Part shown: piece after piece, positions 3-62,823 of the stretch
How the letters are laid out: each line of letters opens with the position of its first letter
How positions within the stretch are numbered: position 1 is the stretch's first letter
From: a virus
Lineage: Duplodnaviria; Caudoviricetes
Strand: one strand, 5' to 3'
DNA: 64,000 bases
Virus record (IMG/VR): IMGVR_UViG_3300001528_000208
Location: 40,806-104,805 of that record
Program-made: the position numbers and the translations under genes
The notes under the pieces: generated by a model
What the model was told of the DNA's origin: nothing
Seen by the model: only the letters and a program-made list of their open reading frames with translations
Databases searched by the model: none

Positions 3-1151
3 GAATTTCGATATTATAGGCGTAAAGAAAAGCGTCTTTCGAAAAAGATTAAACGATGCGAAGCTATCGGTGGAATAGATGGTGTATTTACATTTGGCGA
101 TTTATATAAATGCGGCAAAGCGTGCTGTAATGGCGTTCGGTGGAAGCATAGTGTGCAAAATTTCGAAATGCACTTGTTTTCAACTACGGTTAAATCGTTG
201 GCTGACGTAAAGAACGATAAATGGGAAAGCAACGAATATTTCAGATTTGTTTTAACGGAACGTGGTAAAACACGCGATATTGATGCGCCCAAAATTGTTG
301 ACAGGCAAATCCATAAAGCTATTACGCGAAACATTCTTTTGCCGTTATATACACCAATGATGATTTACAATAATGGGGCAAGTCAAAAAGGAAAGGGATT
401 CCACTTTAGCTCAAATGAACTGAAGAAAGATTTGCGTGAACATTTTAGGAAGTATGGTCGTGAAGGTTGGATACTTCTAATTGATTTCAAGAAATTTTTT
501 CCAAACGCAAAACACGCAAATATATACAATAATCATGAAGAATTAATTTTTGATGAAAGATTGCGTAGATTGTGTGATTATGTTGTTGGATTTAACAATA
601 ATTCTGGATTTGGTATGCCGCTTGGCGTAGAACCAAGTCAAGCGGAAATGATTTTCTTCCCATGGAAACTTGATTGCTATTTAACGTGCCAATGTGGATT
701 TAGTGGATGCGGTCACTATATGGATGACTATTATATTATAATACCGCCAACGATGAATCCGCATGATGTTCGTGCGAAAGTATTATCTTTTGCCGAATCG
801 CTTGGAATAAGAGTAAATCGCGATAAATCATACTTCGTTAAACTTACAAAATCGTTCCGATATTGTAAAATACGATATCGACTTACGGATACTGGTGCCG
901 TTAAAACACTTGGTAGTAGACCTGCTTATAGGCGAGCTGCAAGGAAAATTCGTGCATTTAAACGCATGGTGGACGAAGGCAAAATGAAATATGAGGATGT
1001 CTACTGTTCTATGAATTCTATAATATCGTATTTCGATAATTTCGACGACAATAACCGTTCTTTTAGATTGAAACGATTGTTTGTTAAAACGTTTGGATTT
1101 AAATATGACGACCTAATGACATTTAGAAGGAGGGATTTCTATAATGTATAA
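3..1151 (+). CDS. Reverse transcriptase, DGR type (5'-truncated by window edge)
   Basis: Frame open from position 3 (EFRYYRRKEKR...CCNGVRWKHSVQNFE); motifs LLIDFKKFFPN, GMPLGVEPSQ (DGR GxxxSQ signature) and YMDD; located in tail-fibre module. Confidence 0.9.
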   Translation, partial: EFRYYRRKEKRLSKKIKRCEAIGGIDGVFTFGDLYKCGKACCNGVRWKHSVQNFEMHLFSTTVKSLADVKNDKWESNEYFRFVLTERGKTRDIDAPKIVDRQIHKAITRNILLPLYTPMMIYNNGASQKGKGFHFSSNELKKDLREHFRKYGREGWILLIDFKKFFPNAKHANIYNNHEELIFDERLRRLCDYVVGFNNNSGFGMPLGVEPSQAEMIFFPWKLDCYLTCQCGFSGCGHYMDDYYIIIPPTMNPHDVRAKVLSFAESLGIRVNRDKSYFVKLTKSFRYCKIRYRLTDTGAVKTLGSRPAYRRAARKIRAFKRMVDEGKMKYEDVYCSMNSIISYFDNFDDNNRSFRLKRLFVKTFGFKYDDLMTFRRRDFYNV

Positions 1152-1945: not shown

Positions 1946-3133
1946 ATGGCGACTGATAATATAGCGCGCGGTTTAGCCGCGCACGCCCTGTCGGTTGCTG
2001 TTGCTGGCGGTGGCGACCACCCCGTTGAATCCGTAAACGGCAAAACCGGTAAGGTTAATCTTACCGCCGCAGATGTTGGCGCTGAACCCGTTGGTTCCGC
2101 CACTAAGTTCGTCATCAACCTGACCGAAGACGTCGAAAACGGCACTTATGCCGCCGACAAGACGTGGGCGCAGATTAAAGTCGCCTATGAAGGTGGAAAG
2201 GTTTTAGCTGTCCATATTGGAAGTAGCGAGTTGCCCATGATTAACGGACAGATTTCTGATGGCGCCGCTGGGTTCACGTTTGGTTACACCAATATCATTG
2301 CAGATGGAACCGCTGTTCACACGCGCGCAATTCACTACCTGTACACGGATTCTGTAGAAACTTGGGAAGACGCCGACGCAGAAGGCGAATATCTTCCTGT
2401 TTCTGGCGGCACTATGGCGGGCGCACTTCTTCTTGCTGCCGACCCCGTCTCTGATACTGGTGCTGCGACAAAGAAATACGTAGATGACCGTCGCTTCAAA
2501 GTGACATTCCAGCGCGACCCCGTCGCCGGTCTGAATGCCGACCATTCCTTTGCGGACATTTCTGCCGCTGTCACGGACAACAAAAACGTTGTTGCGGTAC
2601 TTGATAACAACGAATATCCGCTGACGTATGAATCTGAAAAGGTTCATGTTGATGGCGTTGCGCCGCTTTATATCGGTTCCACAATCGAAGCGTCTGGCAC
2701 TAATGGTGCGCGTCTGACTGGCACGACATCTGGCGATGCAGCCTTCGTGAAGGCAGACACGCAGGCGGATTACATTCCTGTTTATGTTGGTACGCCGACT
2801 GCGCCTAATCACGCCGTTAATCTGGCGTATCTTGCACAGGAAGTCAAAGACGATTCTGCCACCAAGAATCATGTTTCTGTTGCCAAGAATGCGGCAATCA
2901 CTATTGGGCTGACAGATGGCGTCTATTTTGTTTCCGCCTGTGATAGCATTCATCGCGGTCTTTCCGTGGTCTATATGTGCGGTTCCACTACTACCATTTC
3001 CGGTCTTAGTGGTATGGCTGGCTGGGAGGTTACCAAGGGTGGTGTTGACAACAGCCTTTATATTAACAACAAATCTGACGCAGCTGCACTCGAAGTCTAT
3101 ATTGTTGCTATTGGCGCTGGTTCTGCGTATTAA
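1946..3133 (+). CDS. Tail fibre/spike-like protein
   Basis: VESVNGKTGKVNLTAADVGA and ADPVSDTGAATKKYVD fibre repeat motifs. Confidence 0.7.
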   Translation: MATDNIARGLAAHALSVAVAGGGDHPVESVNGKTGKVNLTAADVGAEPVGSATKFVINLTEDVENGTYAADKTWAQIKVAYEGGKVLAVHIGSSELPMINGQISDGAAGFTFGYTNIIADGTAVHTRAIHYLYTDSVETWEDADAEGEYLPVSGGTMAGALLLAADPVSDTGAATKKYVDDRRFKVTFQRDPVAGLNADHSFADISAAVTDNKNVVAVLDNNEYPLTYESEKVHVDGVAPLYIGSTIEASGTNGARLTGTTSGDAAFVKADTQADYIPVYVGTPTAPNHAVNLAYLAQEVKDDSATKNHVSVAKNAAITIGLTDGVYFVSACDSIHRGLSVVYMCGSTTTISGLSGMAGWEVTKGGVDNSLYINNKSDAAALEVYIVAIGAGSAY

Positions 3134-3145
3134 GGTGGTGGTTAT

Positions 3146-3691
3146 GTGATTACATTTGATAATTGGGTAATCAAGAACGTTGGTTACCCGTTGGCAATGC
3201 AATACGACCACATGACGCGCGAACTGTATATTTCTGGCGACATCCCTGAAGGCTATACATGGGACGTTCTTTGCCGCTACAAGCGTGAATTAAATATCAT
3301 TCGGCTTGAAGCTGTTGATGGCGGCATTTCTACGCTGCTGACGAAACACGACCTTGCGAATAATGGAACTTATATTATTCAGTTGCGTGGCACCAAGGAT
3401 GGAACTGTGCGACACAGCAACGCGATTCAGGTCGAAGTGCCGAAGTCGCTTTCTGGTGATGACCAGTGGCCCCTTGTCCCAAGCGAATTTTCGCAGATGG
3501 AAGCGCGCATTAACGCGATTGCCAAAGAATCGGACGACTTGAACAACCATCCACCTAAGCCAGACCCGACTGGCTATTGGGATATTTGGAATCCCGAAAA
3601 GCAGGAATACGAACTTAGCGATATTCCCGTATCAAACGTTTCACCCATTTCCTACGACATCATTAGCGGCGGTGGCGCTGCGATTGATTAA
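3146..3691 (+). CDS. Baseplate/fibre-associated structural protein (BppU-like N-terminus)
   Basis: Context and QYDHMTREL...G.Y.IQLRG pattern. Confidence 0.4.
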   Translation: MITFDNWVIKNVGYPLAMQYDHMTRELYISGDIPEGYTWDVLCRYKRELNIIRLEAVDGGISTLLTKHDLANNGTYIIQLRGTKDGTVRHSNAIQVEVPKSLSGDDQWPLVPSEFSQMEARINAIAKESDDLNNHPPKPDPTGYWDIWNPEKQEYELSDIPVSNVSPISYDIISGGGAAID

Positions 3692-3710
3692 ACTATGATG
3701 GAGGTATAAT

Positions 3711-4766
3711 ATGGCAGACAAAGTTTTGAATGTCAGAATTCAACTTCGTCACGACACAGAAGCAAATTGGACTACGGTTGACCCCGTGCTTCTGGCTGGC
3801 GAAGCTGCTGTGACCCTTGATGGCGACAACAAGGGGAGAATTAAGATTGGCGACGGCACTTCCAAGTGGAGTGCGCTTGACTATCTTGGCGGCGAGGACA
3901 CCTTGCTCGCTAAGAGTGTTATGTTCGATAGCGACATGGTGTTCACCGAACAGTTTGGTAAGTATAAGCCGACTGGCGGCAAGGTCACTATCCCGTCCAA
4001 CAACAAGTCCCTGTATGAAGTTCTTATTGACGCTTATTCCGAAGATAAGAACCCGACCATTACCCAGCCCAGCATGACCATCTCCAGTTCTACTGCGAAG
4101 GCATACGAAGTTGGCACGAATGTTACGCCCGCTTATTCCAGTTCCTTCAACGCTGGTAGCTACGAATATGGCCCCAATCCGACTGGCGTTACCGCCACGA
4201 CCTATGCGGCGTCTAACAATAAGACGGATGAAACTGCCAGCACCGCAAGTGGTACGTTTGCCGAGTATCAGGTTGTCGATGGTTCCAACTACAACATCAC
4301 GCTTGCTATCACCTATGGCGACGGTGCTGTTCCCAAGACTGCACTTGGCGCCAATTATGATGCAGGCAAAATTGTCGGCAAGACTATCAGCAAGACCAGT
4401 TCCAACATCAGTGGCTATCGTAACAGCTTCTATGGCACGACCACCGATGTTGCTGCTGAAACTACCAGCGACGTTATTCGTGGTCTTTCTCAGAAGTCTA
4501 ACAAGGCGCTTGCTAATGGTAACACCTTTACCGTCAACATTCCCGTTGGTGCCCAGCGTGTTATTATTGCGTATCCCGCGACCCTGCGTGCTGTGACTTC
4601 CATTAAGGACGTTAACGGTCTGAATGCTGATATTACTTCCGCGTTTGCTTCTTCCACCGTTTCTGTTGCCGGCGCTAATGGCTATAGTCCGATTGAATAT
4701 CGCGTCTATACGCAGGACTATGCAAAGCCCAACGATACGGCTAACACCTATTCGGTGACTATCTAA
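3711..4766 (+). CDS. Mtd_N (hyaluronidase N-terminal-like) domain fibre protein
   Basis: RIQLRHDTEANW..DPVLLAGE...KIGDG..KWSAL.Y; Thr/Ser-rich beta body. Confidence 0.75.
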   Translation: MADKVLNVRIQLRHDTEANWTTVDPVLLAGEAAVTLDGDNKGRIKIGDGTSKWSALDYLGGEDTLLAKSVMFDSDMVFTEQFGKYKPTGGKVTIPSNNKSLYEVLIDAYSEDKNPTITQPSMTISSSTAKAYEVGTNVTPAYSSSFNAGSYEYGPNPTGVTATTYAASNNKTDETASTASGTFAEYQVVDGSNYNITLAITYGDGAVPKTALGANYDAGKIVGKTISKTSSNISGYRNSFYGTTTDVAAETTSDVIRGLSQKSNKALANGNTFTVNIPVGAQRVIIAYPATLRAVTSIKDVNGLNADITSAFASSTVSVAGANGYSPIEYRVYTQDYAKPNDTANTYSVTI

Positions 4767-4785: not shown

Positions 4786-5199
4786 ATGGCTATTTCTAAT
4801 CTGCCCAAGCTTAACTTTAGTGTGCCGTTTGCAATGACTGCGGCACTTCCGCTTGAGTACAATGCGTATTTCGACAGCTATGATTCCGCTGTTGCCGCCG
4901 CCGCCACTGCGGACGTCCCCGGCAGCACTACTACGGTCTACTACTACGGTCAGAAGATTGTTGTTGTTGGCGAAACTTCTGCCGACCTGTACATCATTCA
5001 GCCCGACAAGACGCTGAAGGCCGCTGGTACTATTCCCATTGCGACCGATACGCTTCTTGGTGTTGTGAAGAGTTCCGCTGAAATCAATAAGATTGCCGTT
5101 GGCGCCGATGGCGTTATGTCCGTCAATACTATTTCCACCGATAAGCTTGAACAGGGTTCTGACACCATTGTTTGGAACGGTGGCGGCGCTTCCGTTTAA
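4786..5199 (+). CDS. Structural fibre-associated protein
   Basis: PIATDTLLGVVKSS...DGVMSV motif common in fibre proteins. Confidence 0.55.
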   Translation: MAISNLPKLNFSVPFAMTAALPLEYNAYFDSYDSAVAAAATADVPGSTTTVYYYGQKIVVVGETSADLYIIQPDKTLKAAGTIPIATDTLLGVVKSSAEINKIAVGADGVMSVNTISTDKLEQGSDTIVWNGGGASV

Positions 5200-5215
5200 T
5201 TGGAGGTAAACAAAC

Positions 5216-6004
5216 ATGGCTACTAAGAATTTTAATGCACGTATTTCGCTGAAGTACGACAGTTATGCAAATTGGCTTGCTAACGACCCTGTTCTTCTGG
5301 TGGGTGAAGTTGCTATTGCGACTATCCCCACCAAAAAGGATGGCATTGAGCAGGTTCCCGCCGTCATTATGAAGGTCGGCGATGGTACCAGCAAGTATAG
5401 CGAACTGTCGTTCGTCAGCGGTCTTGCTGCTGACATCTATGACTGGGCGAAGGCTGCTACGAAGCCCAGCTACACCGCCGACGAAATCAGCGGTCTTGAC
5501 ACCTATATTTCCGGTCAGATTCAGGACACTAATACCCAGTATCAGATTGTTGTTGACCAGACTAACCCGCGCAAGTTCCAGCTTCAGTCCCACGAAAAGG
5601 GCGTAACTGAATGGACTAATGTTGGCGACCCGATTGAGATTCCTGCCAGCACGCTGGTGACCGGTGACGATAACGGTACTGTTAAGTTCAATGGTACCGA
5701 TGTCGCTGTCAAGGGTCTTGGTTCTGCCGCTTATGCCAATACCGGCGCGTTTGATGCTGCCGGTGCCGCCGCCGACGTTCTTGGTAGTGATGCCGACACT
5801 GCTGGCGATGCTACCGTCTATGGTGCGAACAAGGCTGCTGCTGCTGCGCAGGCTAAGGCGGATACCAACGCTACTGAAATAGCCAAGAAGATTGACGCGA
5901 CTTCTGTCAGCGCCATTGGTAAGTCTGGCAACATCAATGATGCAATCCAGTCTACTGGCGACTACATCATCTTCAACTGCGGCACTTCTGACACTGTTAT
6001 CTGA
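5216..6004 (+). CDS. Mtd_N domain fibre protein
   Basis: ARISLKYDSYANW..NDPVLLVGE...KVGDGTSKYSEL. Confidence 0.75.
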   Translation: MATKNFNARISLKYDSYANWLANDPVLLVGEVAIATIPTKKDGIEQVPAVIMKVGDGTSKYSELSFVSGLAADIYDWAKAATKPSYTADEISGLDTYISGQIQDTNTQYQIVVDQTNPRKFQLQSHEKGVTEWTNVGDPIEIPASTLVTGDDNGTVKFNGTDVAVKGLGSAAYANTGAFDAAGAAADVLGSDADTAGDATVYGANKAAAAAQAKADTNATEIAKKIDATSVSAIGKSGNINDAIQSTGDYIIFNCGTSDTVI

Positions 6005-6016
6005 TTTTAACGGAAA

Positions 6017-6040
6017 GGGCGTCGTCGCTTGATGGCGCCC
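6017..6040 (+). terminator. GC-rich hairpin, probable terminator or processing site
   Basis: gggcgtcgtc-gctt-gatggcgccc. Confidence 0.5.
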
Positions 6041-6065
6041 TATTCCAAAGAAAGGAAGGGCTGTT

Positions 6066-6344
6066 ATGGCTACAAAAACCTATAACGCTCGCGTTCAAAA
6101 TAAGCGCGACACAAGCGCAAACTGGACTAAAAATGACCCAGTTCTTTTAGATGGTGAAATCATTATTGTTGATACGTCCGCAGGTGAAGTTCGGTATAAG
6201 GTTGGCGACGGAACAAAGAAATATTCGAAACTTCCGTTCACCGATGAAGTCATGCTGACCCTTATTTCCAGCAAGGCCGACGCCGTTCCCTATTCGCTTG
6301 TCAAGAATAGTGACAATAGTTTAAGTCTTGTTTGGGAGGAATAA
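6066..6344 (+). CDS. Stand-alone Mtd_N domain protein
   Basis: ARVQNKRDTSANWTKNDPVLLDGE...KVGDGTKKYSKLPF. Confidence 0.75.
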   Translation: MATKTYNARVQNKRDTSANWTKNDPVLLDGEIIIVDTSAGEVRYKVGDGTKKYSKLPFTDEVMLTLISSKADAVPYSLVKNSDNSLSLVWEE

Positions 6345-6347
6345 CAA

Positions 6348-6704
6348 ATGGCAACAACTACTATTGATTTGCTTAAGAATTCATCTTTCGAAGCGAAGAT
6401 GGATTTGCTGATTACTGCGCTTTCTGGTGGCGGTAGCAGCGGTGTTCCGAATGGCGCTATCATTATGTGGTCTGGTTCTGTTGCGACCATTCCCGATGGT
6501 TTTTCGCTGTGTAATGGTGAAAATGGAACGCCAGACCTTCGAAACCGATTTGTGATTGGTGCTGGCGGTTCTTACGCCGTTGGCGCAACTGGTGGCGGTT
6601 CTGCGACTACTTCGGTCGGCGATGTTGTTGCTGGCCCACAGGCGACCGTATCGACTTCCGCGCTTCCGCCGTACTACGCGCTTTGTTATATCATGAAGAC
6701 TTGA
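6348..6704 (+). CDS. Tail collar-like / short tail fibre domain protein
   Basis: VPNGAIIMWSG..IPDGFSLCNGENGTPDLRNRFVIGAG...LPPYYALCYIMK. Confidence 0.8.
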   Translation: MATTTIDLLKNSSFEAKMDLLITALSGGGSSGVPNGAIIMWSGSVATIPDGFSLCNGENGTPDLRNRFVIGAGGSYAVGATGGGSATTSVGDVVAGPQATVSTSALPPYYALCYIMKT

Positions 6705-6729
6705 CAAATGTTCAAGTCTGTGCTATAAT
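6701..6729 (+). promoter_or_regulatory. Consensus sigma-A promoter (one of ~27 similar)
   Basis: TTGACA-17 bp-TATAAT with extended TG. Confidence 0.85.
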
Positions 6730-6781
6730 ACAAACAATAGTGGTAGTCCACTGAAATTATATTTTGAAGGAGATTCTAAAC

Positions 6782-7264
6782 ATGGCTATTCTTACTCGTA
6801 TTGCTTCTGATGGTATGCCCATCGAAATGACTGACTGCACGATGGACAAGTCCCATACCAAGCTTGCCGTCATTGCGCCCACCTATAAGCGTTATCCCGA
6901 GCGCGCTGGCAAGACCATCACGGTTGACCCTTGCTGGGAAATTACCTATGACGACCGTGGCTACTTCGCTTCCATGAAGAACACTGCTGGCAAGGTTGCT
7001 GCGCCCAGACATAACTTCGCGTTTGTCAACGAAGCTGCTGGCGATGTTCAGGTTCCTGGCATGGGCACCTATTACAAGGATTGCACCGCGTCTTCCGACG
7101 ACGGCATCCTGTTCACCATCTATGATGGCGCGACCAACTTCGTCTGTCTGGCGAATGTCGTCACCAAGGAGGTCATTCCCAATGTTGGCGACCCCAGCGA
7201 CAAGAAGCACGTCGAATATATGTCTTCCTATGGCGAGGCATTCCTGAAGGCTTATCTGCACTAA
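6782..7264 (+). CDS. Moron-like hypothetical protein with own promoter and terminator
   Basis: AAGGAG RBS before ATG 6782; strong codon bias; flanked by promoter 6701 and terminator 7283. Confidence 0.75.
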   Translation: MAILTRIASDGMPIEMTDCTMDKSHTKLAVIAPTYKRYPERAGKTITVDPCWEITYDDRGYFASMKNTAGKVAAPRHNFAFVNEAAGDVQVPGMGTYYKDCTASSDDGILFTIYDGATNFVCLANVVTKEVIPNVGDPSDKKHVEYMSSYGEAFLKAYLH

Positions 7265-8341: not shown

Positions 8342-8731
8342 ATGCTATCTATTATTATCGAAAATTTAGAACTGGTTGGCATTGCAATGGGGTTGTTCGT
8401 CGGTTCTGTTGCTGCCAACACGCTTCTTGGCTTATATAACAACATCAAGATTCTGATGCAGCCGTTTGATAAACAGCGTCTGATTGATACGGGGCTGAAA
8501 ACCGGCTGTCTTGTCGTCAGCATTATTCTGATGGTTTTGGTTGTCACGGTGATGCCCGTGTTCTGCAACAATGTTGGGTTCCCGATTCCTGACGAATACA
8601 TTGATGTTTTCAGCAATCTGACGATTATTGGCGCGGCTGTTATTCCGTCTTGTAAGTATCTGAAGGATGCTTATAACAAGCTGTGTAACATTTTCAACAA
8701 TATGAATAAAGCCTTGGCAAATCAGGCGTAA
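8342..8731 (+). CDS. Holin (three TM)
   Basis: Three hydrophobic helices after endolysin. Confidence 0.7.
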   Translation: MLSIIIENLELVGIAMGLFVGSVAANTLLGLYNNIKILMQPFDKQRLIDTGLKTGCLVVSIILMVLVVTVMPVFCNNVGFPIPDEYIDVFSNLTIIGAAVIPSCKYLKDAYNKLCNIFNNMNKALANQA

Positions 8732-8743
8732 GGAGGTATAATC

Positions 8744-9163
8744 ATGGCATATACGAAAACTGTATGGGTGAACAATCAGGCGCCTGCAATCAATGCGGAC
8801 AATCTGAACAAGATTGAACAGGGAATTTATGACACGGACGCGGGCGTTACCGCTGCGAATGGCAGAATTGACACGACCAATAGTAACGTGACGGCGCTGA
8901 CCACCGAAGTCGGCAAGAAGACCGTTAGTTACGCTATTCAGGTAACACTGACGTCGGCTGGTTGGTCTGGTGGTGCGCAGACGGTTAGCGCGGCGCACGT
9001 CACGGCGACGAATTCTGTTGTTGTGTCGCCGATTCCCGCTCATCAGGACGCTTATAGCACTGCGGGTATTCTTTGCACGGAACAGGCGGCTGGAACGTTG
9101 AAATTTACCTGCACTTCTGACCCGACTGCGAATATCACCGTCAACGTTTATATTGCTGAATAA
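8744..9163 (+). CDS. Tail fibre protein (short)
   Basis: YTKTVWVN..PAINADNLNKIEQGI N-terminal motif, coiled coil, beta C-terminus. Confidence 0.7.
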   Translation: MAYTKTVWVNNQAPAINADNLNKIEQGIYDTDAGVTAANGRIDTTNSNVTALTTEVGKKTVSYAIQVTLTSAGWSGGAQTVSAAHVTATNSVVVSPIPAHQDAYSTAGILCTEQAAGTLKFTCTSDPTANITVNVYIAE

Positions 9164-9175
9164 GGCGGTGGTCAT

Positions 9176-10207
9176 GTGATTTTTAACAGATATGCACGTG
9201 GCGGTGGTGGCGGTGGACTTGGCGCGTTGATTTACGTGACGGTCGAAGCTGGCAGTACCGTAACGGCAACCATGGGAACAATGACACGCAACGCCGTGTA
9301 TAGTCAAGGTGTTTATGTGATTGATATTCCCGCATTTGGCGATTGGGTTGTAACGGCAACAAAGGGCGCGAATACGGCAACGGCGACCGTTTCGGTGACG
9401 AAGGCGGGGATGTATGAAATCACGTTAAAGTATATTAGTGCGACGCTAAACGACAATGATTGGGCAACGATTTGCGATATTGCAGACGCAAATGAAGGCT
9501 CCAATTATTGGTCTATCGGAGACACGAAGCAAATCGTAATTAACGGTAAACTTTCCGACGGATTGACCCTATCAAACTATTCTACATGGGTTTACATTAT
9601 AGGCTTTGACCACAATTCGTCCGTTGAAGGCACGGGCATTGCGTTTCAGGGCTTCAAGACTGCGCAAACGGGCGGCATTGATGTGGCGTTGGTTGATAGT
9701 GGGATTGACTCTGCTAAAACCAGTGGTCAGTGGTTCAATATGAATAACGCATCCACGATAAGCACCGGTGGTTGGAAAGATAGTTTGATGAGAACTGTAA
9801 CGATTCCAGTTGTAAAGTCTGCTTTCCCGAATGACTTGATATCCGTTATTAAAAAGACTAATATTTACAGTGATAACACCGGTGGTGCAAGTGAAGCTGC
9901 ATCATATGTCACTGCTACGCAAGACGACCTATATCTTCTTGCTGAGTACGAAGCGTTTGGTACAAGAACTTATGCTAATACTGCCGAACAGAATTATCAG
10001 CAGCAATACGCCTACTACTCGTCTGGTAATAGTAGAATTAAATATCGCCACAATTCTACTGCAACTGGCGTGGTTTGGTGGGAACGTTCCGTTCGTGCAG
10101 CATATTCTGGATATTTCTGTAGTGTGGGGACTGCTGGAGATCCTTTTATTGGACAGGCGAGTACCGACCGTGGTCTTGCCCCGGCATTTAAAGTTGGGGG
10201 GGGGTAA
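9176..10207 (+). CDS. DUF6273-like C-type-lectin-fold receptor-binding protein, probable DGR target
   Basis: LNDNDWATI...WSIGDTK, IIGFDHN, GGWKDSLMR, LLAEYE, terminal WWERS...FCSV...GLAPAF variable-region-like segment. Confidence 0.8.
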   Translation: MIFNRYARGGGGGGLGALIYVTVEAGSTVTATMGTMTRNAVYSQGVYVIDIPAFGDWVVTATKGANTATATVSVTKAGMYEITLKYISATLNDNDWATICDIADANEGSNYWSIGDTKQIVINGKLSDGLTLSNYSTWVYIIGFDHNSSVEGTGIAFQGFKTAQTGGIDVALVDSGIDSAKTSGQWFNMNNASTISTGGWKDSLMRTVTIPVVKSAFPNDLISVIKKTNIYSDNTGGASEAASYVTATQDDLYLLAEYEAFGTRTYANTAEQNYQQQYAYYSSGNSRIKYRHNSTATGVVWWERSVRAAYSGYFCSVGTAGDPFIGQASTDRGLAPAFKVGGG

Positions 10208-10899
10208 CAACTAACCCTATTTCTGACCTGTCTGTTGGTGATTCGGTTTATATAAAGGAAGACGGAACCGATGTTGAATATCTGATTGTCCATAGGGGTA
10301 ATCCAGATTCTTCTGTGTATGATTCGTCTTGCGATGGAACGTGGTTGTTACGCAAGACAGTATTCCCGAATGTCGCTTGGAACGCTACAGCTTCGTCCAA
10401 CTGGACCACGTGCGACGTTATGAAGTGGTTGCGTGACACGTATCCATCTACTACCAATGTTTCGTCTATAATGAACACAGCAAAGGTACCATATATTGGA
10501 ACACAGATGAACCAGATTATTTCTGGGGCAAATGGAAACGCTGCCAAATGTTTCCTTCTTAGTAATGCTGAAGCTGGATTCCTGACCGACACAAACGCAA
10601 CGAAATCTTTGAATGTGTGTGGCGCCAAGCTTGATTATTTTGATGAAACATCAACCACTGTGGCATCCAGTAAGCGCATTGCCTATAGTTACACTAATGC
10701 ATCTACTGCTGTATCTTGGTGGTTGCGTACTCAGCCGCTGTCAAATCAAAGCAACGCAGAGTTTTGTGGCCTATATGGTGGCCATGGTCACGGCAGCGTG
10801 ACGTATACGTCTGCGATGGGACAGGTATTTGGCGTTCGTCCGTGCTTCATTGTTCCGAATGATACGCTAATCGACAGTAATCACAATATCGTCGTATAA
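10204..10899 (+). CDS. Second DUF6273-like domain with no canonical start before GTG 10315; in -1 frame relative to upstream gene across G9 tract
   Basis: Frame reads VTTNPISDLSVGDSVYIKEDGTDVEYLIVHRGNPDSSVYDSSCDGTWLLRK...WWLRT...GVRPCF; in-frame stop at 10189. Confidence 0.7.
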   Translation, partial: VTTNPISDLSVGDSVYIKEDGTDVEYLIVHRGNPDSSVYDSSCDGTWLLRKTVFPNVAWNATASSNWTTCDVMKWLRDTYPSTTNVSSIMNTAKVPYIGTQMNQIISGANGNAAKCFLLSNAEAGFLTDTNATKSLNVCGAKLDYFDETSTTVASSKRIAYSYTNASTAVSWWLRTQPLSNQSNAEFCGLYGGHGHGSVTYTSAMGQVFGVRPCFIVPNDTLIDSNHNIVV

Positions 10900-10995
10900 A
10901 GAATAACTTGACAAAAATCAAACCGTGCGCTATAATTAGGATAATCAAGGGCGGACAATCTTCGCCCTTGACGATTCTAATATGCGGAGGCAATC

Positions 10996-11346
10996 ATGCT
11001 AACGGTAACACTGCGAAACACATTTACAAAATTTGACGAAACGCGAATCGTGGCATCGTTTGAAGATGCGCGCGAATTCGTGTCGGACAAACTGCGCGAA
11101 ATGTTCAAGGCGACAACCGACGAACAGCAGCGCGAATATTGTCAGGACGTAATCGAACGCTTACACAAGGGCGTGCCGTCTTATGGGCGCGGCGTGGAAG
11201 ATTCGATTGCGTATGACATCGTTGACTATATGGATTGGAAGGAACATCAAGACAAGCAGGTCAACGGGCTGATTGAAACTATTCAGGAACTTACGCGGGA
11301 AATCGAAGAAAAGCGTAAGGAACTTGATGCTATACGGGGAACTTAA
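10996..11346 (+). CDS. Hypothetical protein (C-terminal coiled coil)
   Basis: GGAGG RBS; promoter at 10908. Confidence 0.7.
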   Translation: MLTVTLRNTFTKFDETRIVASFEDAREFVSDKLREMFKATTDEQQREYCQDVIERLHKGVPSYGRGVEDSIAYDIVDYMDWKEHQDKQVNGLIETIQELTREIEEKRKELDAIRGT

Positions 11347-11459
11347 CGGTTCCCCGTTTTTAGCGAAAACCTGTGTTTACAATTTGTTTACACTTAAACC
11401 CCTTGACAAAATATTGTTTGTGTGCTATAATGCAGATAATGTTGAAAGGAGGTGAATAA

Positions 11460-12551
11460 ATGGTAAACAGGTTTAAGACGGAGATTTTTCCAGACGAAAA
11501 TCAGCACAAGTTATTCCTTTATTTTTGTAACGAATATAGGGAAATGTGGAACTATACGGTTGAAAAATTTCGGGACAATTATCCTATTGTTTACAAGAAT
11601 GGAATTAAAGGATTCAAACCGTCTGATTTATTCAAGGAATCTAAGAACAAATGTTTGCAAAGAATAGCGGTTGGTGTTATAAAGAATTATGCCTTTGCAG
11701 TCAAAATGTTCAAGCTTGGTATTTGTAATAAGCCAAGATTTCATAAATATAACCCAAACAAACAATCATTCTATCTTGCGTGTCATAAGTTTGAAATAAC
11801 AAGACTTAGTGAAGATGAAGTGATTATTGGTAAAAATGGCGTTTTTCGATGGATTCGCCTTGACGTAGAAGTTATAAACAAATACGATATCAAAGAAATA
11901 CGTGAACCAGTGTTTTCTTATGAAAATGGCAGGTGGTATATCAGTGGTGCGTATAGGGTTGAAGCTGCACCGCGTCAAGGTCGCACAGAATTCATTGGTC
12001 TTGATTGGGGAATTAAGAATTTCATGACAACATCAGATGGTCAATTTATAAATTACCCGAAGTCTATAAAAAGGGAATATCAACGTGTCAAAGTTTTGCT
12101 TAAACATCTTAACAAAAAGCAAAAAGGTTCTCGAAATTATATTAAGATGATAAGAAAGTGCCATAAAGCGATTCGAAGAATTGAACATTTGAAGCACAAT
12201 TTTATAGAACAAGAAACGACAAGATTGTGTAGGCAAAACAATATTGCTGTTGAAAAATTTCCACCAACCACTTATAAAAGATTTAAATACGTTGAACGTG
12301 TTGCACCACGCGGAAGATTTGTTGTAAGACTTGCGCGAAAATGCGAAAAGTTTGGCACCGAGTTTATGGCTGTTCCGCCGCAATATACAAGCAGGATTTG
12401 TAGTTGCTGTGGTTTTCAAAAGAAAAGCCTTAAATTATCTGAACGTGTTTATAAGTGTGAAAACTGCGGAGTTGAAATTGACCGTGATGTAAATGCGGCG
12501 CGAAATATCGCCGCAATGGGTGTTCGCAGCATCCACAAGCCTATAGAATAG
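11460..12551 (+). CDS. tnpB: TnpB-family RNA-guided nuclease (divergent, no TnpA)
   Basis: RuvC-I GLDWG, RuvC-II IAVEK, Zn finger CSCCG...CENCG, RuvC-III DRDVNAARN; own promoter at 11403. Confidence 0.88.
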   Translation: MVNRFKTEIFPDENQHKLFLYFCNEYREMWNYTVEKFRDNYPIVYKNGIKGFKPSDLFKESKNKCLQRIAVGVIKNYAFAVKMFKLGICNKPRFHKYNPNKQSFYLACHKFEITRLSEDEVIIGKNGVFRWIRLDVEVINKYDIKEIREPVFSYENGRWYISGAYRVEAAPRQGRTEFIGLDWGIKNFMTTSDGQFINYPKSIKREYQRVKVLLKHLNKKQKGSRNYIKMIRKCHKAIRRIEHLKHNFIEQETTRLCRQNNIAVEKFPPTTYKRFKYVERVAPRGRFVVRLARKCEKFGTEFMAVPPQYTSRICSCCGFQKKSLKLSERVYKCENCGVEIDRDVNAARNIAAMGVRSIHKPIE

Positions 12552-38464: not shown

Positions 38465-39036
38465 TTTCGTATCGCGGAACTGAACCCGATATCAAGATGT
38501 CACAGGCGGTGTACAATGAACTGCGCAAATATGCAGTTGCCAGTTCGACGAGGATGATGGCTATTTTCCTGAAGATTGACAAGGACGGTAGCACATATCG
38601 CGTTAAGGAAATCTATATTCCCGAACAGAACTGTAACACGGCGCATTGCATTATTGCAGATGCGGAACTTCGTAAGCTGGGTGCAGAATATATCGGTCTT
38701 TGTCGCACTGGTCATGGCACAAAGCTTGACTTTTCAAAAGACGATGTTGAACTGTTTGACAAGTCTTTCCTTGGCGTGGAAGATTACGTCTGTATGAATT
38801 TCACGCTGGGTGGCAATATGTCGGCAGACATTGTTGTTGGCGACCTGACCTTTGAAGATGTTCGCATCATGGTGATGCCGGAGTTCAAGAAGGAAGAACT
38901 GGATGCTGCGCGGGATTATGTCGATGATCGTGTCAAGGATTGGACGTATAAGGATGGCTATACTGCCCGTGAACGCGGTAATTATGTCCCGACGCCGCTA
39001 TTGACCGAACGCATCGGTTGGCGGGACGTTGTTTGA
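38461..39036 (+). CDS. JAB/MPN-like protein, apparently lacking HxH metal ligands
   Basis: YRVKEIYIPEQ and FSKDD resemble prokaryotic JAB; HSH replaced by RTGH. Confidence 0.35.
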   Translation: MISYRGTEPDIKMSQAVYNELRKYAVASSTRMMAIFLKIDKDGSTYRVKEIYIPEQNCNTAHCIIADAELRKLGAEYIGLCRTGHGTKLDFSKDDVELFDKSFLGVEDYVCMNFTLGGNMSADIVVGDLTFEDVRIMVMPEFKKEELDAARDYVDDRVKDWTYKDGYTARERGNYVPTPLLTERIGWRDVV

Positions 39037-39234
39037 AGGAAGGTTGTGAAATGGATTGGCGTTTAAGGGTGAAAAGATTGTCCATTCGCCACGAATGTGC
39101 GAATATTTGTTGGCGCATGGCGGAAAGCTGTTAAAAACAAAGCGCGACCTGAAAGATGTAACAAGAAAAATCTACATATTCGACGAAAAATCCATCAATG
39201 GGATTATCGGCGGGTATAAGAAAGAAGGAGTACG

Positions 39235-40212
39235 ATGAACAAGGAAGGTTTTAAGAAACTTTGTCTGCCGGTCAAAGAAGATTTGCTTGCGTGGCTTTAT
39301 CAGCAGTTAAGCGAATATTATGGGCTGGCGAACACGGTCAACGGTGGCGACTATCTGTTTTTCAGCGGCAACTGCCCGACAATGCTTTGTGCGCATCTTG
39401 ATACGGTGCATAAGCGTCAGCCGACCAAGATTGTCGATGATGGTAACAAGGTAAGTTCGCCCATGGGAATTGGCGGTGACGACCGCTGTGGCGTCTATTC
39501 CGTTCTTGCTGTGTTGAAGGCAACGGAAGAAAGCGGCAAGCGTCCGTATCTGTTTTTCAGCACGGATGAAGAAGTCGGCGGCGCGTCTACGAAGCGTGCG
39601 GCGCAGGATATCAAGGGTCGTGTAGCTGGCGTCGGCTACATGATTCAGATTGACCGTCGTGGCAAGCAGGATTCGGTCTATTATAAGTGCGACAACAAGC
39701 AGTTCAAGAAGTTCATTGACGAACACGGCTTTGTCGAAGCAAGCGGTTCGTTTACGGACATCTGCAATTTGTCACCCGTGTTTGACCTTGCAAGTGTCAA
39801 TCTGTCGTGCGGCTATTATAGCGAACATCATCCCGAAGAGTATGTTATCTATACAGAATTGCAGGATACAATCGACAAGGTGGTGCAGATTATCGCCGAC
39901 ACCAAGGACGACATTATCTATCCGTATTGTGAAGCGAAGCCGAAGCCAACGCAGAATTACTATGGCAATAAAGGGTCGCACTTTTGGTCGAAATACTATA
40001 CGAAGGGTGACGAAGTTTTCACGAAGTACGGTTCCAGCGCCGTCTACAAGAAGCCGAATTACAGCAACCCAATTTCTGGCGTATATCTGCCCGCTTATCA
40101 TTCGTTCATTGTGCTGGACGTCAAGGATGATTTTATCCAGATTGAATACAATGGCGAAAAAGTGTGGTCTACGTCTTGGAATTTTCAGCCTGACTACGAC
40201 AGCCTGTATTGA
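39235..40212 (+). CDS. M20/M28-family zinc peptidase
   Basis: LCAHLDTVH, GGDDRCG, DEEVGG, QIDRRG, GSFTDI, NLSCGYY.EH. Confidence 0.85.
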   Translation: MNKEGFKKLCLPVKEDLLAWLYQQLSEYYGLANTVNGGDYLFFSGNCPTMLCAHLDTVHKRQPTKIVDDGNKVSSPMGIGGDDRCGVYSVLAVLKATEESGKRPYLFFSTDEEVGGASTKRAAQDIKGRVAGVGYMIQIDRRGKQDSVYYKCDNKQFKKFIDEHGFVEASGSFTDICNLSPVFDLASVNLSCGYYSEHHPEEYVIYTELQDTIDKVVQIIADTKDDIIYPYCEAKPKPTQNYYGNKGSHFWSKYYTKGDEVFTKYGSSAVYKKPNYSNPISGVYLPAYHSFIVLDVKDDFIQIEYNGEKVWSTSWNFQPDYDSLY

Positions 40213-40244
40213 CAAAAACCAAAACGTGTGATATTATAATGGCA

Positions 40245-40700
40245 ACGGTTGAAACGTAGGCTTAGAAGCAGCCATCGTCTAAGGAGTTTATCGCGGGGCG
40301 AGTCTTGACGGTCTTTGTGCCGTGGGAAGTATCTGCTATTGCAATCATATAGAATGATATTTCTTGACCGCCTATGATTGCCGTGGATAATTTGGCGTAG
40401 TAGCACATCAACCGCATGGTGGAATGGCGGGTGACACCTAAAATAACCTCGCCACCATATCCCACAAGTTCCGCAATCGGGGCAGAGTGTAAAATGCGAA
40501 AGCACACTTGGAAGGAAAGCCGTGGGATTAACAGCGCCCATTGAAATCCGTGCGAATATTATTAACATGGTAGAATCGCCTATCTGCAACGCCGCCACAA
40601 CAACGTGGATGGCTATGCGTTAGGGCTACCGGCTAAACCGTCATTTCAAGACGGTAAGGATTAGCTGTTGCGAACCGCGAAAGTGGGATAGCGGGAAGCA
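40245..40700 (+). ncRNA. Candidate structured ncRNA B (~450 nt) with a 23S rRNA L11-binding-domain-like 5' module
   Basis: Own promoter (40209/40232); cggttga/tcaaccg helix enclosing GTAGGCTTAGAAGCAGCCATC and GCGTAGTAGC; no credible ORF; ends at next promoter. Confidence 0.75.
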
Positions 40701-40747
40701 CTTGACAAAATGTAAAGTGTGTGTTATTATAATAACATAAAGCAAAT

Positions 40748-40823
40748 GGCCCCGTGGTCAAGTGGTCTAAGACTCCGCCCTTTCAAGGCGGCAACGGCAG
40801 TCCGAATCTGCTCGGGGCTACCA
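40748..40823 (+). tRNA. tRNA-Glu(UUC)
   Basis: Cloverleaf, ccgcc-CTTTCAA-ggcgg anticodon arm, encoded CCA; T-loop TCCGAAT. Confidence 0.9.
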
Positions 40824-40975
40824 GATTGTGAAATTCAAGCGGCGAAAGCCAAGCCACCGTTACAGCCGGTATTGACAAAATCCAAAATGTGTGCTATATT
40901 ATTATCATGGTGTGAACAGGTTGGTCGCCTGTGAACATAAATTCAAAATTTTGAAAGTAAGAAAGGAAAAAGACT

Positions 40976-41362
40976 ATGATTCGTAATTTCAGAGACATCG
41001 ACGCCGGTAGCATCATCATCTCCAAGAAGGGCAAGCAGTACATCGTTTTGACCGACGGTGAAAACAACAAGGGCCTGTTCGACAAGAACGGCGTTTGGAG
41101 CCGCGTCAACTACGACACGCTGACCTTCGGCAAGAACGACAGCGGCGAAGTCAAGGAAGTCAAGCAGTTCCGCACTCTTCCTGCCCTTGATCGCATCAGT
41201 GAGGCGGTGAAGTACCAGTACACCAGCCGCACCGCCTGTGCGCCGCTGACTACGGTTTACACCGCCGAGCCCGCCGAGGTCACTGCCGCCCGCAAGGCGC
41301 TTGCTGACGCTCAGGCTGCCGCTGACCGTGCCCGTGCCGTCATGGCTGCCTACGGTTTCTAA
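40976..41362 (+). CDS. Hypothetical protein with strong codon bias between tRNAs
   Basis: Own promoter 40872, AAGGA RBS, hairpin 41382-41405. Confidence 0.75.
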   Translation: MIRNFRDIDAGSIIISKKGKQYIVLTDGENNKGLFDKNGVWSRVNYDTLTFGKNDSGEVKEVKQFRTLPALDRISEAVKYQYTSRTACAPLTTVYTAEPAEVTAARKALADAQAAADRARAVMAAYGF

Positions 41363-41412
41363 GCCGTAGAAATTCCCCAGCGGGAAGTGGCGTAAGCCAC
41401 TTCCCTATATAT

Positions 41413-41488
41413 GGCGCACTCGTCTAAAGTTAGGATGCCGCCTTCTCACGGCGGAGATAGAAGTTGCAATTCCTTCTGTGCGTCACCA
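41413..41488 (+). tRNA. tRNA-Glu(CUC), atypical T-loop
   Basis: ggcgcac/gtgcgtc acceptor, ccgcc-TTCTCAC-ggcgg, CCA end; 9-nt T-loop TTGCAATTC. Confidence 0.75.
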
Positions 41489-41592
41489 AGGCGTAGAAAT
41501 ACGCCTTTTTCTATGGGTGTTGACAAAAACAAAATATAGTGCTATTATAATAGCATAGGCAAGCAAAACATAAAACATTAAAACGGAGGTCT

Positions 41593-43143
41593 ATGAAAAT
41601 GGCAGAGATTGTCAAAAAGGTTGAGTGTAAGGAAGATGCGTGGTCGAACGTTCCGCCGCATCTTCGCGGCATTCAGGATGGCGACGTTCTGGTTATCAAT
41701 CGCTTTGAAAGTGGCAAGCGGTATCCCGAGGAACTTCTTTGGTGCAAGGGTCTGTTTCTTCTTGCTGATGATTATATGCGTTGGCAGTTTGACAGTCCCG
41801 ATGGCATCGCGCTGACTATCAATGACGAAATTCCCGCCGAGCGTCAGGCGCTTGTTCGTGAAAACGGTTTCGATGGTGATTTCAAGGTTGGCTTTGATGC
41901 CGTGGTTTTCCCTGAAAACCTCTCGTTCCGTGACAAGGAACCCGAAGTCGAAGCTGAAAAGCCCGCCATGAAAAACTATAGCATCCATCATGACGTGCAG
42001 GATGAAGATATCATCAAGGAAATGATGGGCAAGGTCGATAAAGAAAGGTTTCGCAAACTTTGCCAAGTCGCTGTCGGCAATGGCAAAAAGACTTCTAACG
42101 AAGCCATCGACATTCTTCTGCGCAAGTGGGCAGAAGCGAAGTACGATTACTACGTCGCTTTCGGGCATCAGTTGATTATCCGCACGCCCATCGAATATAC
42201 CATGGATGCGAACGAAATGCGTCCGATGGTCTATGACCTGTATAAGACATGGCCTCAGTATGCCGCGTCTATCGACAAGGTTGTTGAATCTGGCGGTCGT
42301 GATGGCATCGACTACTTCACGAAGAACGAAATGCCGAAGTGTGATTTCTTCAAGACCTATGCCCCCGACGTTTATAAGAAGGGCATGAAGATTTCCAAGT
42401 TCTTCAGCCAGCTTTTCAAGAACGAAAAGTTCGACATCGACTTCAGCAAGGTCATGCAGAATCGCATGATTAAGGGCTTCGTCTGCATCAGCATTGACCC
42501 GTATGACTTCATGACTTCGGGTACGAATATGCACGGCTGGTCTACCTGCCAGAAGCTGTACGGTTCTATGAACTATGGTACAGTCCAGTGGATTTGGGAC
42601 CCGAACGCGCTGATTGCGTATCGCGACAACGGCAAGACATATCTGTATGACCGCATCGTGGCGAAGCAGGACGGCGAACGCGACGAATATACGTTCGGTA
42701 AGAACCAGTTCGAGGGCAATTCCAAGTCTTGGCGTCAGATTATCAACGGCGACCGCATGAACTGCACGTTCCTGTTTGGTCGTGAATATCCCCAGCACAA
42801 GGACATCGAAGTTGTGTCTGAAAAGGCGCGTGAACTGCTGGAAAACACCATCGGTTCCTATATCGGCGTGACCGATTGGGATAACTATGGCGATTTGAAG
42901 CGGATTCACAGCGAAAAGTATTTCGGTAACAAGCCCGTGTACGCTGACGTGACGAACCATCACTACAGCGACATCCACGAGTGGGAATCCTTGAAGCGTT
43001 CTTATCCCGAAATTAAGAAGGCTTTGGTTTCCCCGCACAACACGGATATGTCCAAGGTGCAGGTGACTGCCGGCGGCAAGCTGTACTGCCTTTGCTGTGG
43101 CAAGGAAATCAAGAACAACGCCGTGTTCGATAATTGTCAGTGA
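41593..43143 (+). CDS. Large hypothetical phage protein (paralog of 43247)
   Basis: KW.EAK...FGH, KG...ISIDPYDF..S.TN.H.W.TC, WRQII, C-terminal CLCCG. Confidence 0.75.
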   Translation: MKMAEIVKKVECKEDAWSNVPPHLRGIQDGDVLVINRFESGKRYPEELLWCKGLFLLADDYMRWQFDSPDGIALTINDEIPAERQALVRENGFDGDFKVGFDAVVFPENLSFRDKEPEVEAEKPAMKNYSIHHDVQDEDIIKEMMGKVDKERFRKLCQVAVGNGKKTSNEAIDILLRKWAEAKYDYYVAFGHQLIIRTPIEYTMDANEMRPMVYDLYKTWPQYAASIDKVVESGGRDGIDYFTKNEMPKCDFFKTYAPDVYKKGMKISKFFSQLFKNEKFDIDFSKVMQNRMIKGFVCISIDPYDFMTSGTNMHGWSTCQKLYGSMNYGTVQWIWDPNALIAYRDNGKTYLYDRIVAKQDGERDEYTFGKNQFEGNSKSWRQIINGDRMNCTFLFGREYPQHKDIEVVSEKARELLENTIGSYIGVTDWDNYGDLKRIHSEKYFGNKPVYADVTNHHYSDIHEWESLKRSYPEIKKALVSPHNTDMSKVQVTAGGKLYCLCCGKEIKNNAVFDNCQ

Positions 43144-61895: not shown

Positions 61896-62220
61896 CTTTT
61901 GCTTGCGTGTGCATATTTATGCAAGTATGGTGTATATGCAAAATCGTGTATTTTTATGCAGGGTGGGGCGGTTATGGAAAAAGTGTTGCATTTGCAACAG
62001 GGGATGGGATGGGGTAATTTTTTTCACACACTGGGGTCAACATCTTTCATCGGGTTTATGCCATCTGCTTCAAGTATACTTCGTCAATTTCTTTTATCAT
62101 CGGCCTCCACTGCCCTTCTTCGTCCTTCCAATCATTTGTTTCCACTTCAAACCAAACCGGTTCGCCCTGTTCATCGAAACGCCCAATGATAATCTTCATC
62201 GCCATAGGGGGGGGTGGGTT

Positions 62221-62823
62221 TTAGTGTCCATCCCCGCAATTCCTTTCTTCCACGAACAGTTCCTCGAGTATGCGCGGCTTATATTCCCGCTTGTCCATTC
62301 CCGCGATTCTTTTAAGCGTCGTTCCGTCAATCAGCCCTTCGAAGCCGCTGTCGATGATGATGTTGCAAATCGCAATCTGGTCTTTGCGTAGGCGCCGCTC
62401 AAGCCGCGTTTCATGTAGCATCCGATAAAGGCGATAGCCCTGCGCCGCATTAAGCGAATAAAATTCCGCCGCGTGTTCGATATCCAGTAACGCCGCATCT
62501 GCACGCGCCAGTTCTGCCTGTGCGTGTTCGCGCATACGGAAGACTTTTCGCAATAGCGTCTGTATGCCCAGCACGCTTGTCTTGATGTCGTCCAAGCAGT
62601 CTTCGTCAAGGTATTCGTCAAAGTCAATGTCAGTGTAGCGCTCGCGGTCTGTTGCTTCCTGAATGGCATAGCCGATGTTCTTGAACGACTTCGACAAGTT
62701 CGCATAGAAGTTTTCGGCTTTGTTTCGTTCCGAAAACTTTAGCGCCGATTCAGGACTTGAGACCGTGGTTACACCGCGCTCGTCTTGCTGTATGTAGCCC
62801 GCGCCGTTTGTGATAAGCCACAC
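62221..62823 (-). CDS. Hypothetical protein with coiled coil
   Basis: DIEHAAEFYSLNAAQGYRLY...RR..KD...REYKPRIL.ELF; GGAGG RBS. Confidence 0.65.
   Translation of the reverse strand: MWLITNGAGYIQQDERGVTTVSSPESALKFSERNKAENFYANLSKSFKNIGYAIQEATDRERYTDIDFDEYLDEDCLDDIKTSVLGIQTLLRKVFRMREHAQAELARADAALLDIEHAAEFYSLNAAQGYRLYRMLHETRLERRLRKDQIAICNIIIDSGFEGLIDGTTLKRIAGMDKREYKPRILEELFVEERNCGDGH

Follow-up and report, generated by a model that had tools for sequence, protein, structure and literature searches.

The 64,000-nt stretch of DNA analysed in this study (the window) comprises bases 40806-104805 of a 104,805-bp virus record (IMGVR_UViG_3300001528_000208, Caudoviricetes), the completeness of which was estimated by CheckV at about 98%. 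On its plus strand, a run of nine guanines (G9, 10196-10204) joins two reading frames that each encode a DUF6273 domain. Because near-identical phages carry either in-frame or out-of-frame tract lengths at this joint, the run most likely acts as a slippage-prone switch in the DNA, by which the second domain is gained or lost. We consider it probable that the G9 run is a hypermutable poly-G contingency tract in the glycine linker of a two-DUF6273 surface protein, and that the record caught this gene in its one-domain state.

The first open reading frame (ORF 1, P0001; 9176-10207) starts with GTG and encodes 343 aa, made up of an N-terminal beta-rich part and the first DUF6273 (C-type-lectin-like) domain; it is a paralogue of the target of the phage's diversity-generating retroelement (DGR). 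The C-terminus is AFKV-GGG-stop, with the zero-frame codons TTT AAA GTT GGG GGG GGG TAA across the tract and the stop at 10205-10207, as an initial annotation of this DNA had read it. The same annotation had followed the -1 frame correctly: it is closed 5' of the tract by TAA 10189-10191, is open thereafter to 10899, and has no ATG, GTG or TTG before GTG 10315-10317, which is its residue 42. This second frame (P0002, 10204-10899) holds 231 codons with zero internal stops, and its translation begins S W G G V T T N P I S D L S V G D S V Y I K E D G... A tract of G10 would fuse the two halves into a protein of 574 aa and G7 into one of 573 aa, and a -1 slip on G GGG GGG would yield the same product as G10; the roughly 575 aa proposed at the outset were close to these values. 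The junction peptide of the fused product is ...AFKVGGGVTTNPISDL... Immediately 3' of the Gly-Gly-Gly linker, the sequence TAACAACTAA (10205-10214) contains stops for both out-of-frame states, TAA 10205-10207 for G9 and TAA 10212-10214 for G8 or G11, and therefore every OFF length terminates 0-3 codons past the tract. The corresponding post-tract stretch of the relatives, TAGTAACTAA, has the same two-frame stop arrangement.

The second frame is real coding sequence that is unable to start on its own. The DUF6273-like domain suspected there scored 69.7 bits (E 3.6e-19) against DUF6273 (PF19789) and the first half scored 36.1 bits (E 7.6e-09), both above the Pfam gathering cut-off of 23.5 bits; in PHROGs, the halves fall in phrog_37900 and phrog_10993 ('Hoc-like'). 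DUF6273 is a C-type-lectin-like domain with DGR variable regions at its C-terminus (PMC10743442, PMC11792537). An AlphaFold2 model of the second domain reached a predicted local distance difference test score (pLDDT) of 89.6 and a predicted template modelling score of 0.89. Its best structural match (PDB 9qa6) is the DUF6273 N-terminal domain of the IgA peptidase of Thomasclavelia ramosa; a sequence search of PDB gave no match. The first canonical start codon lies well inside the domain, as the initial annotation had maintained, because both the homologue alignments and the AlphaFold model place the start of the conserved fold about 32 residues before GTG 10315. More than 100 homologues, obtained by searching 1.84 billion representatives, aligned from about residue 8-10 of P0002. 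The model has beta-strands at residues 18-23 and 26-36 (pLDDT 96-98), ahead of the first start codon, and when 48 standalone homologues were aligned to the domain, G16, G36 and P38 were invariant and V15, V19, G25 and V33 nearly so. The Pfam envelope opens 6 residues past GTG 10315, and the public gene call for this frame (P0123, 184 aa) begins later still, at TTG 10345. In codon alignments of the second domain, the ratio of nonsynonymous to synonymous substitution rates (dN/dS) was 0.20-0.32 between the OFF allele and ON alleles and 0.11-0.32 among ON-ON pairs, so that the domain behind the OFF allele is still under purifying selection.

When related genomes were examined for the tract, the fused two-domain architecture proved to be normal. 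In at least 20 homologues, a single ORF of 506-565 aa runs collinear with the two halves; P0087, P0088, P0091, P0094, P0095, P0098, P0100, P0113, P0116 and P0119 are single ORFs of 549-562 aa, and P0087 is 58% identical to P0001 and 45% to P0002. The junction classes were drawn from proteins closely related to P0001 (74-79% identity), which are encoded on contigs of 100-116 kb. They include one-domain proteins of 339 aa ending AFKV/AFKI-stop; G-linker fusions to DUF6273 of 549-559 aa (GG(G)V.TKP...); G-linker fusions to an unrelated module of 506-527 aa (GG-AKYTP[VL]EYI...); Pro-linker fusions of 561-565 aa (GSNPPPQP...); a tandem duplication of about 600 aa (GTTPIFPTL...); and a truncated class of 335-377 aa whose tails are GGG-stop, GGGSN-stop, GGLSTRLLNIS... 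or GGPSTHPLNI... The AFKVGGG-stop ending of the window was found in six clusters of the tally and also in P0319, which the filter had missed. The tails GGLSTRLLNIS and GGPSTHPLNI come from the AKYTP module translated in a frame shifted by one base, and P0376 and P0331 are frameshifted versions of the proteins with this module. The module itself, AKYTP[VL]EYI..TGTQYIDTG, forms the C-terminal ~165-185 aa of P0274, P0282, P0368 and P0377 and had no Pfam match. Counted over cluster representatives, GG-type junctions are fused in about 19 cases and out of frame in 10; about one third of the G-tract alleles, distributed over three different modules downstream, are OFF. One-domain forms predominate in the family (84 of 138).

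Alleles that differ in tract length were found on nearly unchanged backgrounds. GT-G8-TAGTAACTAA is in frame at three metagenome loci (L069, copy 1 of L070, and L073), whereas copy 2 of L070 has an out-of-frame G9 that leaves a 337-aa ORF ending GGGSN-stop and puts the second domain into the +1 frame. Between L070 copy 2 and L069 the flanks are identical and the single G is the only indel, so the tract length differs here, G8 against G9, with its surroundings unchanged. L070 is a 23-kb contig with tandem two-domain paralogues at 3001-4680 (G8, in frame) and 5112-6801 (G9, out of frame), separated by a small 'MAYTKTVW' gene. At the protein level, ON and OFF forms are 98-100% identical. One 90%-identity cluster holds P0088 and P0502 (552 and 555 aa, ...AFKVGGVVTKP...) together with P0501 and P0503 (337 aa, ...AFKVGGGSN-stop), the two pairs being 98% identical over domain 1; P0503 and the 211-aa P0496 come from one 1887-bp contig. 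A 108.7-kb contig encodes P0491, a second-domain fragment of 170 aa with 100% identity to that domain in the intact P0095. The second-frame ORFs P0383, P0495 and P0497 read through the tract as ...SKW-GG(G)-V..., which is possible only from an out-of-frame allele. In the window and in its relatives alike, a change of tract length switches the downstream frame on or off. The correction needed is -1 in the window and +1 in L070 copy 2, as expected from random slippage.

The joint is not always made of guanines. The positional orthologue L071, which has the same next gene as the window, encodes an intact 562-aa protein with a Pro-rich linker. The coding sequence of the linker GSNPPPQP in L071 (3970-4010) and L072 contains a C7 run, CCACCCCCCCAG, so that poly-C stands at the same domain joint in some relatives. 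A fused junction had been expected in G001, the closest complete relative (107,954 bp, with terminal repeats), but its positional orthologue turned out to be one-domain with a DGR-type 3' flank. A blastn search of the GenBank phages with 8700-11400 gave no match, and tblastn with the second domain found there only relatives of 32-38% identity, e.g. in Faecalibacterium phages, annotated 'Hoc-like'. In the viral collection, the exact junction pattern gave zero matches and the second domain no match; two looser matches to the pattern (L172 and L173) were rejected, both being unrelated and non-coding.

The tract is an oddity in its own genome. A first-order Markov model predicts 0.09 runs of G or C of at least nine per genome; besides G9, the 104.8-kb genome has one G8, with all remaining runs of five or fewer. 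GGG is the rarest glycine codon (9.3% of Gly codons) and occurs in none of the 12 other runs of three or more Gly codons in long ORFs, including the N-terminal Gly6 of the tract gene itself. The G8 (62207-62214; C8 on the gene strand) is intergenic, flanked on one side by the stop codon ending a 200-aa minus-strand ORF (62823..62221) and on the other by the ATG (62205) with which a 49-aa ORF starts; G001 has G7 followed by C at this site, i.e. a one-base difference in length.

We suggest that the G run changes in length by one or more bases through replication slippage. Lengths that are in frame (G7 or G10 here) would produce a protein of about 574 aa, in which the second lectin-like domain is C-terminal to the first, and out-of-frame lengths would produce the 343-aa one-domain protein. 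The OFF product would be essentially the same as the natural one-domain paralogues ending AFKV-stop. Slippage between the states, if it is reversible and under selection as we suppose, would therefore make the phage population a mixture of particles with and without the distal lectin domain, and might change binding or host range. The protein is probably a virion surface protein, a paralogue of the DGR target of the tail-fibre or adhesin type. The tract gene lies at the end of the tail-fibre and lysis block, and therefore a role on the virion surface in binding to the host or to mucus is plausible; the terms 'receptor-binding' for the protein and 'host-range dial' for the switch, used in the initial annotation, describe a supposed function.

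Several points weigh against this interpretation. The G9 of the record may be a consensus error or hide a mixed population. The closest relative of the exact second domain (P0379, 67% identity) is itself called as a short ORF, and the exact second domain was not found in a fused state among the relatives. Coverage is low for some of the contigs with OFF examples (about 6x for L070), and most OFF forms at the protein level are known from protein sequences, not from DNA. Furthermore, a non-adaptive mutational hot spot would also give recurrent frameshifts. If the G9 were a homopolymer error in the consensus, the true phage would have G10 (or G7) and an intact 574-aa two-domain protein. This would agree with the fused form being the usual architecture, with the single base that restores a frame otherwise flawless across 231 codons, and with the proneness of long G runs to error. 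However, several assemblies of related phages, made independently and with contigs of 85-109 kb among them, show the same out-of-frame state, and the majority path is what assemblers report. No other gene of the genome looked broken at a homopolymer, and only two of its G/C runs exceed five. We thus regard a consensus error as unlikely, and even if it applied to this record, polymorphism of the tract within the family would stand. It also seems improbable that the frameshift is an ordinary loss of function at a hot spot, which removes domain 2 and marks the onset of decay without any used switch. Short and stable tails of relatives (AFKVGSN-stop, SFKVGNNN-stop) do look like contracted tracts fixed out of frame, and the prevalence of one-domain forms (84 of 138) is in line with such losses. 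Nevertheless, the pure-G tract has been retained in diverged relatives despite the codon bias, the second domains behind OFF tracts are intact and constrained, and stops stand in both alternative frames directly past the tract in the window and in relatives. An OFF fraction of about one third over three downstream modules is also difficult to explain by decay.

A fixed G9 could also serve both products by recoding, if a -1 ribosomal slip on G GGG GGG or stuttering of the RNA polymerase made the 343-aa and the 574-aa proteins from one template. The heptamer (10198-10204) fits X XXY YYZ in the zero frame, although this is a formal fit only, and a stop codon directly follows; the slip product is exactly the G10 product, and the continued constraint on domain 2 would be accounted for as well. 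Yet we found no stimulatory RNA structure: the fold of 10190-10300 had z = +1.71, and 194 of 200 shuffles were at least as stable. Orthologues are in frame and need no recoding, and the OFF allele L070 copy 2 requires +1 where the window requires -1. Efficient transcriptional slippage in bacteria is documented mainly on A/T runs. Recoding is hence a very unlikely source of the two forms. The initial annotation had left the choice between slipped-strand variation and frameshifting; the former has gained from the length variation at the junction among near-identical public sequences, and programmed ribosomal frameshifting is disfavoured. Independent translation of the second ORF from GTG 10315, TTG 10345 or a near-cognate codon such as ATT 10219, with the G run as a mimic of the Shine-Dalgarno sequence, is hardly credible. 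The public gene call from TTG 10345 (P0123) assumes such a start, and standalone one-domain DUF6273 proteins of 220-275 aa are common. But all standalone homologues include the region before residue 42 with its three invariant residues, the model puts two core beta-strands there, ATT 10219 is 14 nt past the G run and beyond normal spacing, and neither a promoter nor a terminator was predicted between the two frames.

The initial annotation had also taken the switch to be layered on DGR hypermutation of the same protein, and this part has to be given up. In genome coordinates, the DGR consists of a target paralogue (38766-39782), an Avd-like ORF (39840-40394), a template repeat (TR, ~40440-40562) and a reverse transcriptase gene (40715-41956). 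The last of these occupies -90..1151 on the plus strand of the window, starting 90 nt before it, and its pair of TR and variable region (VR) lies upstream of the window and serves the other paralogue. The VR of that paralogue (genome 39649-39771) has 17 A-to-N differences from the TR over about 123 nt. The 3' end of P0001 has 41 of 61 positions identical to the TR, with 10 of the 20 mismatches at non-A bases; the end of P0002 gave no match to the TR at all, and no TR-like repeat was found within the window. The VR of the tract gene (10067-10192, plus strand) retains the scaffold WWERS..FC.V..G.AP.FKV. Among relatives the VR region is hypervariable, with a dN/dS of 0.65 compared to 0.11 for the rest. 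True DGR targets in relatives end AFKV/AFKI-stop, followed by a conserved flank, TGACGAAGTC..., and a GC hairpin with a GAAA loop, GCGCGCGAAAGCGCGC. This 3' flank, which resembles an initiation of mutagenic homing (IMH) site, and the hairpin were not found after the VR of P0001, where the G9 tract and the second domain stand instead. Because the stop, flank and hairpin have been replaced and the TR is mismatched, we regard this VR as a fossil, and the DGR of the phage targets the other paralogue.

The GC hairpin with its GAAA loop is a conserved 3' signature of DGR targets, and it was also seen after the stops of one-domain DUF6273 genes in many unrelated contigs (L001, L002, L075, L076, L092, L094, L133-L135, L142, L147 and L170). 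In G001 (L176, which is G001:104000-107954 on the reverse strand, and L177), both paralogues end AFKV-stop and share the 3' flank and the hairpin GCGCGCGAAAGCGCGC. Since both have a target-type 3' end, it is probable that G001 has a pair of DGR targets separated by about 11 kb, of which one lies far from the cassette.

Switching by poly-G is itself already known; what is new here is the protein family, the placement in a linker such that a domain and not a gene is toggled, the joint common to at least three modules, and the DGR in a paralogue. In bacteria, poly-G and poly-C contingency genes fuse or split ORFs (Campylobacter, Neisseria and Haemophilus). The tract described here shares with them the slipped-strand mechanism that we propose and the ON/OFF logic of frames, but it lies on a virus and toggles a C-terminal binding domain, not the expression of a whole gene; phase-variable homopolymers of C. 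jejuni are treated in PMC10877375. Hypermutable poly-G tracts were reported in genes of Campylobacter phages (Sorensen et al. 2021, Cell Rep 35:109214, as cited in PMC10877375 and PMC12823448). As far as those citations describe them, the run likewise lies in a phage structural or receptor-binding-type gene, and slippage varies its length and creates phenotypically mixed populations. In contrast, our case concerns an uncultured gut phage whose host is probably a Firmicute, and a DUF6273 lectin-like protein known from sequence alone. The tract is in an inter-domain linker here, so the OFF state leaves a plausible one-domain protein, unlike the Campylobacter phage case as it is cited. Contingency loci were also described in T2/T4 and other phages (Gomez, Barrick and Waters 2025, bioRxiv 10.1101/2025.10.21.683753), where simple-sequence repeats in phage ORFs undergo reversible frameshifts by polymerase slippage and population heterogeneity serves as bet-hedging. 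Those loci are many and short, occur in all gene classes and were seen at the read level, whereas here there are only two long G runs, one of which lies at a conserved domain joint that is common to at least three alternative C-terminal modules in relatives.

DGR targets with DUF6273 or C-type-lectin-like domains include proteins of Faecalibacterium phages (PMC11792537), the tentaclins (PMC10743442) and Mtd of Bordetella phage BPP-1. Domain 1 is like them in being a paralogue of an active DGR target, with the VR scaffold kept at the C-terminus of DUF6273. It differs in having no TR match, flank or hairpin, and it would diversify, if at all, by turning a domain ON or OFF and not by adenine mutagenesis. 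In phages Mu and P1, invertible tail-fibre segments (van de Putte 1980, cited in PMC12823448) are, as presented in the citing article, also a stochastic switch at the DNA level that acts on the C-terminal, ligand-binding part of a virion protein. The difference, on the same account, is that a recombinase inverts a segment between two C-termini there, while slippage would add or remove one domain here. Programmed frameshifts give isoforms of phage structural genes in lambda (G/GT) and T7 (10A/10B). These resemble the present gene in that one locus gives a short and a C-terminally extended protein; they depend on a fixed template with a conserved slippery site and a fixed ratio, whereas here the orthologues are in frame and the tract length varies.

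It is possible, and in our judgement nearly an even question, that this family of ~105-kb human-gut phages uses poly-G as a standard slippage-prone joint after a DGR-type lectin domain, with stops in both other frames, and that its populations continually mix particles with and without the distal module. Under the same tentative reading, at least three C-terminal modules share the joint, namely two kinds of DUF6273 and the unrelated 'AKYTP.EYI' domain. If so, two independent layers of diversification would be combined, in which the DGR fine-tunes the binding face of the paralogue and the tract turns the display of an extra binding domain fully on or off; modules may also be exchanged more easily by recombination at this shared joint. 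There are very few systems in which poly-G switching of phage genes has been demonstrated by experiment. The present case would extend it to an abundant uncultured family of human-gut phages and to DUF6273 lectin-like proteins of the DGR-target type, with the tract used for adding or removing a domain instead of knocking out a gene. It is also a warning for annotation: 'split' DUF6273 genes and short ORFs of 170-230 aa behind G runs would be one gene in two states.

A promoter-like site on the plus strand (8714..8742, TTGGCA-17-TATAAT, 11/12) heads a unit of 8744-9163 plus 9176-10899, and a perfect promoter of the next gene (TTGACA-17-TATAAT, 10908..10936, plus strand) marks the end of the unit. 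Directly after it, a 363-aa ORF (11460-12551) with its own perfect promoter matches the transposase phrog_506 (E 9e-66). More than 20 near-perfect TTGACA-17-TATAAT promoters, detected as direct-repeat families D1-D5, are spread across the window from 6700 to 58839.

Homopolymers of variable length were also observed elsewhere. A conserved C-tract upstream or in the 5' part of DUF6273 genes of further relatives varies from 7 to 9 (8 in L009, L010, L012, L095 and L133, 9 in L096 and 7 in L148); it lies about 110 nt ahead of the match start and appears as G on the minus strand. In another gut-phage lineage (L050 and L093), three consecutive genes have similar N-termini (M.I.G[DE]....P...GGG) with a G run 12-15 codons after the start. 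The lengths of these runs in L050 (3334, 3695 and 4840) and L093 (2337, 2697 and 3843) are 10/7, 8/9 and 8/7, respectively, and L093 has an intact third gene, which in L050 is split at its tract.

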